A DNA stretch of 64,000 nt from Dehalococcoidia bacterium. GTDB taxonomy: Bacteria; Chloroflexota; Dehalococcoidia; Bin125. Below the pieces are notes generated by a model, which saw only the letters and a list, made by a program, of their open reading frames with translations, had not been told where the DNA came from and did not search any database. The position numbers were made by a program, and so were the translations under genes. How positions within the stretch are numbered: position 1 is the first letter of the stretch; every line of letters starts with the position of its first letter. The stretch covers positions 99,730 to 163,729 of the forward strand of contig OZ242948.1 in assembly GCA_965211635.1 (NCBI GenBank), in the 5' to 3' direction. Shown here one piece after another: positions 19,208 to 20,674 of this stretch.

Positions 19208-20674
19208 GTGCGAGCCATCGGATACCTCAGTCTGACTTCCCCTCATGCCCATCGCCGTGATCACCACGGCGCCGAGTCTCTCACCGCCAGCTCCGCTCAG
19301 CCTTCGTTGATTGAGCAGAACGCACACTTTCTCGACTACTGCCAGGAGCAGGGATTCGAGCCAACCGCGACGTTCCTCGACTCGGATACAGTCGCCAACC
19401 GCGAGCGCCCAGGACTGAGACAACTGCTGCGTCACCTGAACGAGGAAGCCCGGGGGTTCACCTTCGTCATCGTTCAGAGCTTCGACAACCTCGGTCACGA
19501 CGCAACGCAGGCCGTTCGCACGGTGCTCCAACTGAGAGCGCGAGGCGTTCAACTGATCTCCCTCGATGAAGGACCAATCGACGAGTCAGCGCTCATCGAA
19601 CTCTGGCGCCTACGCAGCGATCCCGACCCCGATGCCGAGCGTCGCCGTCAGCGCCTCCAGGAGAGAGCGCGCCTTGGCCAGGCGATCGGCCGCCCGCCCT
19701 ACGGCTACCGCGTTGGCGCAGACGGTCGCTACGAGATTGAGGAGCAGGAAGCCGACGTCGTCCGGCGAATCTTCGGCCTCTATCTGGGTGAAGGGCTTGG
19801 CATCAGGAGAATCGCGCAACGTCTCAATGCCGACGGATTCCAGACTCGCCGGGGACGCAATTGGAGCATGGTGACGATTCGTGATCTGCTGCGCAATCCT
19901 GTCTACATCGGCCGCTACGACAAGCTCGGCGTGAGCGTCCCTGGAAACCACGACGCGATCGTCTCCGAGCCGGACTTCCTCAGTGTCTCGCAGCAGATGG
20001 AGGAACGCCGCACTGCGCCGGGCATCAGCCACCCTTCCGACTTCCTGCTCTCCGGCCTTGTTTGGTGTGGCGAGGATCAGACCCGGATGATTGGTGTCAC
20101 GCGGCGACGACAGTGGCACGGCGCCAGTGGCGAGTCGGGTGAGACGGTCTACCGCTACTACCAATCGGAGGCGCGCACCAACCAGTCTGTAGGCAGCTAT
20201 CACACCCGCCAGGCCGACGAACTGGAAGCGGAGGTCCTGGCGCACATTCGCGGCGAGCGCGAGGGCGGCGAAATCTCCGTGCTCAACTTCGTCCGCGATG
20301 ACACGGCGCTGGCCGCCGAAACTGTTGTCGCCCTGGCAAATGCCGAAGCCCGCCTGCGCGGGATTGATCGCCGCCTCGCCGTGCTGCTCGAGGACGTTGC
20401 CTCTGGCGATCCACCGCCGGTCGGTCTCCAGGACGCCGGCGCAAATCTGATCAGTGAATGGGAGTCGGCCAGCGCCGACCTCGCCCAGGTACGCACTCGC
20501 GCTGCGGCCCAGGAGCGTGAAGCCGACCGCCGTCGCCGCCGAGACCAGCGCATCCAGAGAATCCGCAACGACTGGCACACCCTCACCTTTCCGCAGCAAC
20601 GAGACCTAATCGAGCACCTCGTCGAACGAGTCGTCGTCTTCGACCACTCCGTCACCACCCAGCTCAAGGCCTAG
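19208..20674 (+). CDS. Large serine recombinase homolog with degenerate catalytic residues (likely inactive or domesticated)
   Basis: The resolvase N-domain aligns from memory to gamma-delta resolvase: Y-x-R-V-S-T becomes GYLSLTS, and LDRLGRD becomes FDNLGHD. So catalytic R8, S10, R68 and R71 are replaced by S, T, N and H. The recombinase domain (…GRPPYGYRV…IRRIAQRLNADGFQTRRGRNWSMVTIRDLLRNPVYIGR…) is well conserved. The zinc ribbon is reduced to a single Cys. Confidence 0.7.
   Translation: MRAIGYLSLTSPHAHRRDHHGAESLTASSAQPSLIEQNAHFLDYCQEQGFEPTATFLDSDTVANRERPGLRQLLRHLNEEARGFTFVIVQSFDNLGHDATQAVRTVLQLRARGVQLISLDEGPIDESALIELWRLRSDPDPDAERRRQRLQERARLGQAIGRPPYGYRVGADGRYEIEEQEADVVRRIFGLYLGEGLGIRRIAQRLNADGFQTRRGRNWSMVTIRDLLRNPVYIGRYDKLGVSVPGNHDAIVSEPDFLSVSQQMEERRTAPGISHPSDFLLSGLVWCGEDQTRMIGVTRRRQWHGASGESGETVYRYYQSEARTNQSVGSYHTRQADELEAEVLAHIRGEREGGEISVLNFVRDDTALAAETVVALANAEARLRGIDRRLAVLLEDVASGDPPPVGLQDAGANLISEWESASADLAQVRTRAAAQEREADRRRRRDQRIQRIRNDWHTLTFPQQRDLIEHLVERVVVFDHSVTTQLKA

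Follow-up and report, generated by a model that had tools for sequence, protein, structure and literature searches.

A large serine recombinase homolog that has lost its catalytic residues and lies beside a COG1579 gene in Chloroflexota is probably a domesticated DNA-binding protein

The gene at positions 19208-20674 (+ strand; GTG start, 488 amino acids) of a 64,000-nucleotide stretch of contig OZ242948.1 from a Dehalococcoidia bacterium (hereafter the window, which means the whole stretch analysed) encodes a homolog of the large serine recombinases (LSRs) that is predicted to be catalytically dead. We think it probable that this LSR-like protein, a member of the LSR superfamily, was domesticated long ago, and that it binds DNA and no longer recombines it. 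The LSR fold is retained, the catalytic residues are lost, the gene is under purifying selection and forms an operonic pair with a gene of the COG1579 family, and many Chloroflexota have inherited it vertically at one fixed place in the chromosome. An earlier, sequence-only reading of the window had seen here the relic of an integrative element whose recombinase was retained in degenerate form, possibly as a DNA-binding factor. As described below, the relic is not borne out, while the sequence data are best read as the retention, under purifying selection, of a DNA-binding factor.

The three-domain layout of an LSR, which the earlier reading had recognised, is complete in this protein. The Pfam profiles PF00239 (Resolvase, residues 32-127, 41.7 bits, cutoff 23.3), PF07508 (Recombinase, residues 179-267, 75.4 bits, E = 4.5e-21), and PF13408 (Zn_ribbon_recom, residues 280-348, 31.7 bits) all matched above their gathering scores, and profile alignment and Foldseek gave the same layout. 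The resolvase-fold N-terminal domain, which aligns with gamma-delta resolvase (residues 1-160; 19208-19687), is followed by the recombinase domain (RD; residues 161-268; 19688-20011) and by the zinc-ribbon domain (ZD), which consists of a first part (residues 277-350; 20036-20257), a coiled-coil motif (residues 351-458; 20258-20581), and the C-terminal strands that close it (residues 459-488; 20582-20671), the last two being placed by the integrase alignment and the structural model. The AlphaFold2 model, built with 49 homologs, has a mean predicted local distance difference test (pLDDT) score of 84 and folds the coiled-coil region into helices 365-398 and 405-458. Its best Foldseek matches in the PDB are the SPbeta, phiC31, Bxb1, and Listeria A118/LI integrases in LSR-DNA complexes, and the target-normalised TM-score against 2gm5_C is 0.70. 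A family profile aligned with the LI/A118 and SPbeta integrases from the RD through the zinc ribbon and the coiled coil to the C-terminal strands, and the N-terminal profile matched 3GUV, gamma-delta resolvase, Tn3 resolvase, and TP901-1 in the PDB. Homology to the resolvase catalytic domain, and hence to the serine recombinase superfamily, is therefore supported by both sequence and structure.

Existing family models do not name this protein more closely. No NCBIfam model reached its cutoff with it, the best being XisF, which scored 75.7 bits where 375 are required, and an identity with the curated families CcrA, CcrB, or CcrC was rejected because their scores were far under the cutoffs. The PADLOC defence models gave no match to the LSR-like protein, and affiliation with anti-phage defence was rejected on that ground; the COG1579 partner matched only JetD, at chance level (E = 0.009). 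In the databases, the homologs are called only "recombinase family protein" or "hypothetical protein."

The catalytic centre of this fold has been lost. The PF00239 match starts at profile position 13, which leaves the Ser motif outside the match, and the match to the PHROG integrase phrog_95 (2.8e-65) starts at residue 33, past the Ser segment; the catalytic positions were read from explicit profile alignments. The window residues M1-R2-A-I-G5-Y6-L-S8-L-T10 are in register with M-R-L-F-G-Y6-A-R8-V-S10 of gamma-delta resolvase, and the same register holds for the nearest canonical LSRs (YARVST, YIRVST), so that R8 is replaced by S8 and S10 by T10. In the search of the N-terminal family profile against the PDB, "vvvvqSlehLGeD" was aligned to "VILVKKLDRLGRD" of gamma-delta resolvase, and the window residues F92-D93-N94-L95-G96-H97-D98 correspond to L66-D67-R68-L69-G70-R71-D72, so that R68 is replaced by Asn and R71 by His. 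These are the four substitutions that had been read without any database search, and the profile alignment, which places no canonical Ser or Arg at those positions, confirms them all. The window protein thus has Y6-L-S8-L-T10 where an LSR has its Ser nucleophile in a Y-x-R-x-S-(T/S) motif, and S8, N94, and H97 where an LSR has the arginines R8, R68, and R71. The catalytic Ser loop has given way to a hypervariable linker (residues 9-32; 19232-19303) that is predicted to be disordered (pLDDT < 50 at residues 14-28; column conservation 0.09), and the spacing from Y6 to Q37 varies from 12 to 50 residues across the family, compared with 13 in gamma-delta resolvase.

Residue counts in 116 full-length homologs showed how far this loss extends. 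The R8 position is occupied by Ser in 85, Arg in 14, and Thr in 10 of them, with Ala, Gly, and Val in further members; the S10 position is hypervariable (P28, R18, C12, Y11, T6, A6, S6); the R68 position carries mainly His (43), Asn (27), or Arg (22); and at the R71 position (H29, P21, A20, D11) Arg is not among the eight commonest residues. T10 is not a hidden nucleophile, because an ortholog with 85% identity has Pro (P10) in its place. Apart from C45, no invariant Ser, Thr, or Cys was found near the active site across the 116 homologs, and both C45 and Y6 are also present in canonical relatives, where neither serves as nucleophile. As far as sequence comparison can tell, the window protein lacks both the Ser nucleophile and the R8/R68/R71 triad, and no substitute nucleophile is conserved anywhere in the family. 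Other residues of the old pocket are kept, namely Y6, Q19 (Q37), D36 (D58), and R45 (R67; 98/116), the window numbering being given in parentheses.

The zinc ribbon has degenerated as well. The window protein has two Cys in total, C45 and C287, and C287, the single Cys that had been noticed there, is the sole survivor of the four Zn ligands of an LSR. All four Cys are found in 22/116 homologs, mainly in a distant branch (~40% identity) in which R8 is often kept too. This indicates that the degeneration was stepwise, though the Ser is missing throughout. One further homolog, P0201 (443 amino acids, 273 bits), has the N-terminal sequence FAYLRGSDE, which provides R8 and a Ser at position 10, without the DR-x-GR motif, and may stand between the active and the dead forms.

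The degenerate form is nevertheless a conserved one, at ~250 places that encode an LSR-like relative in a collection holding one genome per species. The best 80 of these ~250 places are all labelled Chloroflexota and include many complete chromosomes of metagenome-assembled genomes (MAGs) as well as the cultured Tepidiforma flava YIM 72310. A homolog search gave 652 matches, of which the best 120 range from 100% to 39% identity and are mostly full length, the named ones among these 120 being Chloroflexota or Dehalococcoidia MAG proteins. Full-length orthologs extend from 100% down to ~37% identity, and the named cluster members are all Chloroflexota. In an exhaustive profile search, which gave 1,659 representatives of dead and canonical LSRs at E below 1e-30, the canonical LSRs (YxRVST...DRFGR) begin only at ~216 bits, after ~125 clusters (at 50% identity) without the Ser motif. 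Pairwise ratios of non-synonymous to synonymous substitution rates (dN/dS) between the window gene and nine orthologs were 0.11-0.18 over the full gene and 0.07-0.19 within single domains (N-terminal domain, 0.11-0.18; RD, 0.07-0.17; zinc ribbon and coiled coil, 0.11-0.19), and every domain of the protein is under purifying selection. Columns with at least 90% conservation make up 44/108 of the RD, 26/74 of the ZD, and 18/93 of the N-terminal core; the RD and ZD, which are the DNA-binding domains in LSRs, are the most conserved parts.

The position of the gene was compared by tblastn and nhmmer in 87 loci (7 annotated and 80 further). In the seven annotated loci, where identity of the LSR-like protein ranges from 83% to ~40%, the gene order is that of the window: acpP-nusB-fabD-rpmF-yceD on one strand and, on the other, a CT398_CC/Zn_ribbon_9 gene, the LSR-like gene, the RNase H gene, (rnpB), and murE. 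The neighbours named by the sequence-only reading, a COG1579 gene upstream and RNase HI followed by rnpB downstream, were right for the window and recur in its relatives. The LSR-like gene immediately follows the COG1579 gene in 87/87 of these loci, and in all but one of the ~90 family loci examined overall, whereas RNase H was detected downstream in 72/87 and rnpB in 71/87 (downstream on the same strand in 69). The distance from the COG1579 stop to the LSR-like start is -35 to +59 nt in 75/79 loci (median ~4 nt). In the window it is 32 nt, one less than had been counted, and the window clade has a GTG start throughout at this distance, although start codons in the 79 loci as a whole are divided between GTG (38) and ATG (41). 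The GTG start and 32-nt spacing suggest that translation is lower than, or coupled to, that of the COG1579 gene. The junction with RNase H is looser: it measures 245 nt in the window but only 14 nt in L001, and in L016 an entire additional gene lies within it. The very divergent members at L088, L089, and L091 keep the COG1579 gene directly upstream, even though the neighbourhood of L091 is otherwise different, and Tepidiforma flava YIM 72310 (NZ_CP115149.1; LSR-like gene at L079 4001-5410) has the pair without RNase H. Because the pair persists in the absence of RNase H or in a changed neighbourhood, the closest linkage of the LSR-like gene is to the COG1579 gene and not to the COG1579/RNase H junction; the two form a tight gene pair that is probably translationally coupled.

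The same position in relatives down to ~40% identity also indicates ancient capture followed by vertical inheritance. The gene does lie inside a widely conserved synteny block, as had been said, though as a long-established, fixed member tied to COG1579 and not as a recent insertion. Mobile-element genes, cargo, attachment site (att)-like flanks, and flanking repeats were not seen around the LSR-like gene in the compared loci, and its neighbours are housekeeping genes in the 7 annotated and 80 further loci, which leaves no relic of an integrative element to be recognised at this place. The nearest canonical Ser-bearing LSR that we examined, P0245 (YARVST...DRFGR), lies among many small phage-like open reading frames (ORFs), with no COG1579 gene.

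The partner gene (18480-19175, + strand, 231 amino acids) encodes a COG1579/CT398/FlgZ-type protein, composed of a coiled-coil hairpin and a C4 zinc ribbon, the two parts by which membership in COG1579 is recognised. A profile of nine orthologs matched CT398 (4ILO, 5e-21), MSMEG_4306 (5Y05, 7e-18), and HP0958 (3NA7, 3e-13) over the full length; the zinc-ribbon residues C197, C200, C221, and C224 (CxxC...CxxC) are invariant, and PF24481 and PF02591 were found in the orthologs. Its true start is at 18480, at a conserved ATGGAC, the mechanical ORF start at 18381 being over-extended (18381-18479). About 70 nt 5' of this start lies the conserved sigma70-type promoter of the operon (18384-18412, + strand; TTGGCT, 17-nt spacer, TACACT): in an alignment of 22 orthologous upstream regions, TTG-GC...GCATA(C/G)ACT is nearly invariant despite a dS of ~1. 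These 22 regions showed no clear dyad-symmetric operator at the promoter.

We propose that the LSR-like protein would be a non-catalytic DNA-binding factor, in which the RD and ZD recognise a target without cutting it; the invariance of these two domains across the clade suggests that the target is conserved as well. It might bridge DNA as a dimer or tetramer, the dimer probably being held by the retained alphaE region. The coiled coil, which in true integrases is the contact element for other subunits and for the directionality factor, may contact the COG1579 protein or itself. The LSR-like protein probably acts together with the COG1579 protein, and their pairing would serve a housekeeping nucleic-acid process, not mobility. 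We put forward only tentatively, as a conjecture that may well fail, that the two form a dedicated nucleoprotein complex in which the former integrase recognises DNA by sequence or structure and its coiled-coil partner is the effector, and which would serve an essential housekeeping pathway of nucleic acids (processing of R-loops, primers, or transcripts) with links to RNase HI and the RNase P RNA.

Several observations weigh against this proposal. Gene order is the sole basis for supposing physical contact with the COG1579 protein, and the coiled coil that might make it is weakly conserved in sequence, with only 3/108 columns at the 90% level. The continued conservation of the pocket residues Y6, D36, R45, and Q19 leaves room for residual or new chemistry there. 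One divergent member of the family (P0163, 440 amino acids, R8 kept; L090) is encoded beside yceD with no adjacent COG1579 gene (4905-5001). Finally, a screen of the surrounding +/-4 kb in 88 loci, which counted 11-mers common to at least 35% of them, revealed no conserved DNA target near the locus outside coding sequence (WSMV, YRYYQ) and rnpB.

The same observations bear on the alternatives. The lack of a COG1579 neighbour in L090, together with the leading conservation of the RD and ZD and the unusually conserved spacer of the operon promoter, would suit a transcription factor that binds specific sequences on its own and might, for instance, autoregulate the COG1579-rnhA-rnpB operon; adjacency to COG1579 would then mean co-expression only. 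We consider this unlikely: the promoter has no clear dyad operator, the +/-4 kb around the loci hold no conserved non-coding motif, the pair is kept as a unit in the changed neighbourhood of L091, and neither a selected N-terminal domain nor a coiled coil of ~100 residues would be expected in a simple repressor. The retained pocket, in turn, is what could be expected of an active site-specific recombinase or nuclease working with another nucleophile (S/T8, T10, or Y6) in programmed rearrangement or in the resolution of chromosome dimers or catenanes. The fold is complete, position 8 is Ser or Thr in 95/116 homologs, and domesticated yet active LSRs do exist in XisF and SpoIVCA, XisF being the best NCBIfam match albeit at 75.7 of the 375 bits needed. 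Such activity is very improbable, however, when position 8 is variable and position 10 hypervariable, no Ser, Thr, or Cys near the active site is invariant apart from a C45 that, like Y6, is shared with canonical relatives and is no nucleophile there, the equivalent of R71 is gone and that of R68 remains in only 22/116, and a disordered linker, whose length varies, stands where the nucleophile loop should be.

It is no more credible that the protein is a non-catalytic accessory or decoy subunit, which modulates an active LSR elsewhere in the genome as a directionality factor or as an anti-recombinase against phages and integrative elements. The dimerisation helix and the coiled coil, by which LSR subunits make contact, are kept, and inactive paralogs that assist active transposases have a reported precedent in the PiggyMac-likes (PMC6143343); but we saw no canonical LSR in any fetched locus and no PADLOC match, and a strictly housekeeping context with strongly conserved DNA-binding domains fits a conserved chromosomal target and not variable invaders. 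Lastly, the view of the gene as a functionless remnant that an integrated element left behind and that is now decaying like a pseudogene can practically be dismissed. The loss of the catalytic residues and of three of the four zinc ligands in the window protein, the GTG start, and the absence of an obvious Shine-Dalgarno sequence upstream (as judged by eye) might all be taken for decay, but intact full-length orthologs down to ~37% identity at ~250 places, the low dN/dS, the fixed position within an operon, and the lack of flanking mobile-element genes or repeats do not agree with it. We thus return to a domesticated DNA-binding protein as the probable identity of the LSR-like protein.

Downstream of the LSR-like gene, the window encodes an RNase HI of the Rv2228c N-terminal-domain type (20920-21318, + strand, 132 amino acids; PF13456, PF00075), which matches NF005567, the model of the bifunctional RNase H/acid phosphatase, at 1.7e-38. 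It is followed by rnpB, the RNase P RNA of bacterial class A (21440-21839, + strand; RF00010, 286 bits), and by murE (21965-23650, + strand), whose likely start is MASKSLQEIL at 21965, the mechanical ORF being over-extended (21764-21964) so as to overlap rnpB. The LSR-like/rnhA/rnpB junction is a hotspot of lineage-specific insertions, in contrast to the COG1579/LSR-like junction, which stays tight. In L016, an opposite-strand gene for a 457-amino-acid protein with a signal-peptide-like N-terminus (5471-7216) lies between the LSR-like gene and rnhA; gaps of ~0.8 kb are found at the junction in L008, L011, and L017; and rnpB is displaced in L013, L020, L034, and L042. In L090, an ABC transporter gene takes the place of rnhA downstream of the LSR-like gene.

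In the window, the LSR-like gene is separated from rnhA by a spacer that holds a lineage-specific hairpin insert of ~190 nt (20687-20896), recognised from inverted repeats and RNA folding. The 9-bp inverted repeat to which the sequence-only reading had drawn attention is present (20802-20810 and 20837-20845), but it is the inner part of this imperfect hairpin and has no tie to the LSR-like gene, since the hairpin is absent from orthologous loci. Complementarity is ~83% between the arms (20703-20742 and 20856-20896) and reaches 92% in a 25-nt core (inverted repeats I2, I3, and I13), and the predicted RNA fold has a free energy of -111.6 kcal/mol (z = -4.3). Neither the window nor the fetched loci contain a second copy of the hairpin. 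The 9-bp repeat was rejected as a binding or att site because it lies inside a lineage-specific hairpin that has no other copy. The hairpin could be an insertion like a miniature inverted-repeat transposable element (MITE), a structured RNA, or a terminator.

A GC-rich element that resembles repetitive extragenic palindromic (REP) sequences, with the core GGGGGGAGATGCCGAAGGC, occurs in seven copies in the window (0.01 expected by chance), all on the + strand (4592, 8868, 21354, 21910, 22825, 45828, and 47414), and rnpB is flanked by copies on both sides (21331-21409 and 21887-21942). Inside murE, three tandem 36-nt units and one REP-like element (22695-22843) are in frame and encode ...PLSPREAARPSLSLSLGEAARPSFSLSLGKAARPSFSLSPREAGGDAEGRGGLP.... 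BLASTP alignment of the window MurE (561 amino acids) with that of L003 (522 amino acids) ends at residue 240, just before the repeat segment, and it looks as if a repeat element is tolerated within this essential enzyme.

To our knowledge, large serine integrases have been studied almost only as enzymes of mobile elements and as tools of genome engineering. A deeply conserved host family that has kept the recognition and coiled-coil parts and dropped the chemistry would mean that the LSR scaffold lends itself to exaptation into a DNA-binding module without catalysis, and its natural "dead integrase" variants offer a means to study site recognition and synapsis without cleavage. The near-obligate pairing provides a testable hypothesis for the widespread COG1579 family, which is recurrently associated with RNase HI and rnpB. 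If the LSR-like and COG1579 proteins do form a complex, it would be the first mechanistic handle on the COG1579 family; and since, judging from the literature searched, no cellular housekeeping protein with a large serine integrase as its ancestor had been described before, the LSR-like protein would be the first of its kind. Experiments are feasible in the cultured carrier Tepidiforma flava.

The LSR-like protein shares with the canonical LSRs (SPbeta SprA, phiC31, Bxb1, and A118/LI) the resolvase-fold domain, alphaE, the RD, and a zinc ribbon with a coiled-coil insert, and the nearest Ser-bearing LSRs have in common with the family the SLxxQ...F..C...GY...D motifs. It differs from them in that the window clade has neither the Ser nucleophile nor R8, R68, and R71, nor three of the four Zn ligands, in that the Ser loop has become a variable disordered linker, and in that the gene is chromosomal and vertically inherited, with a near-obligate COG1579 neighbour and no mobile-element context. 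XisF and SpoIVCA, the developmental LSRs, were likewise recruited for a programme of the host, but they are catalytically active and excise an element, while the LSR-like protein has no catalytic residues and stays far below the XisF cutoff.

Our search of the literature on inactive, degenerate, or domesticated serine recombinases and on COG1579 neighbourhoods returned vaccinia F16, the phage protein Odn, and the flgZ synteny, and nothing on the LSR-like family or its pairing with COG1579. Inactive homologs of serine recombinases are thus already known elsewhere, and the present family is undescribed in the literature searched. Vaccinia F16, with which we compare it by description only, is also a conserved homolog from the serine recombinase superfamily that is predicted to be inactive and kept for another role; it is, however, a poxvirus protein that targets nucleoli and has no reported COG1579 partner. 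In Odn of the vibriophage ICP1, the DNA-binding region of a satellite LSR has reportedly been repurposed by the phage and fused to a nuclease (PMC9638900), so that LSR DNA-recognition domains were exapted, as we suppose for the LSR-like protein, for sequence-specific binding without recombination. The LSR-like protein is unlike Odn in that it keeps a dead N-terminal domain and is encoded at a housekeeping locus of the host. In Odn, the nuclease domain reportedly replaces the resolvase-fold domain, and the target is said to be a mobile element.

The COG1579-RNase HI adjacency that the sequence-only reading had named for Actinobacteria is documented in Mycobacterium tuberculosis, in the operon Rv2231c-Rv2230c-Rv2229c (COG1579)-Rv2228c (RNase HI-CobC) (PMC7466739), and Rv2229c is reported to be essential, with a function that is unknown (PMC5947703). 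More widely, flgZ/DUF164 homologs show synteny with NIF3, dnaG, rpoD, and rnhA, and in Borrelia also with rnpB (PMC3372290). The window resembles Actinobacteria (Rv2229c/MSMEG_4306 and Rv2228c/MSMEG_4305) in having COG1579 followed by an RNase HI of the Rv2228c type, and rnpB lies nearby as in the flgZ synteny. The literature on COG1579/RNase HI synteny, from which we take the direct adjacency of COG1579 and rnhA with no LSR-like gene between them, makes no mention of a recombinase-like neighbour. Thus, where no such gene is reported between COG1579 and RNase HI in Actinobacteria, a dead LSR sits in these Chloroflexota, and its tie to COG1579 is closer there than that of RNase HI.

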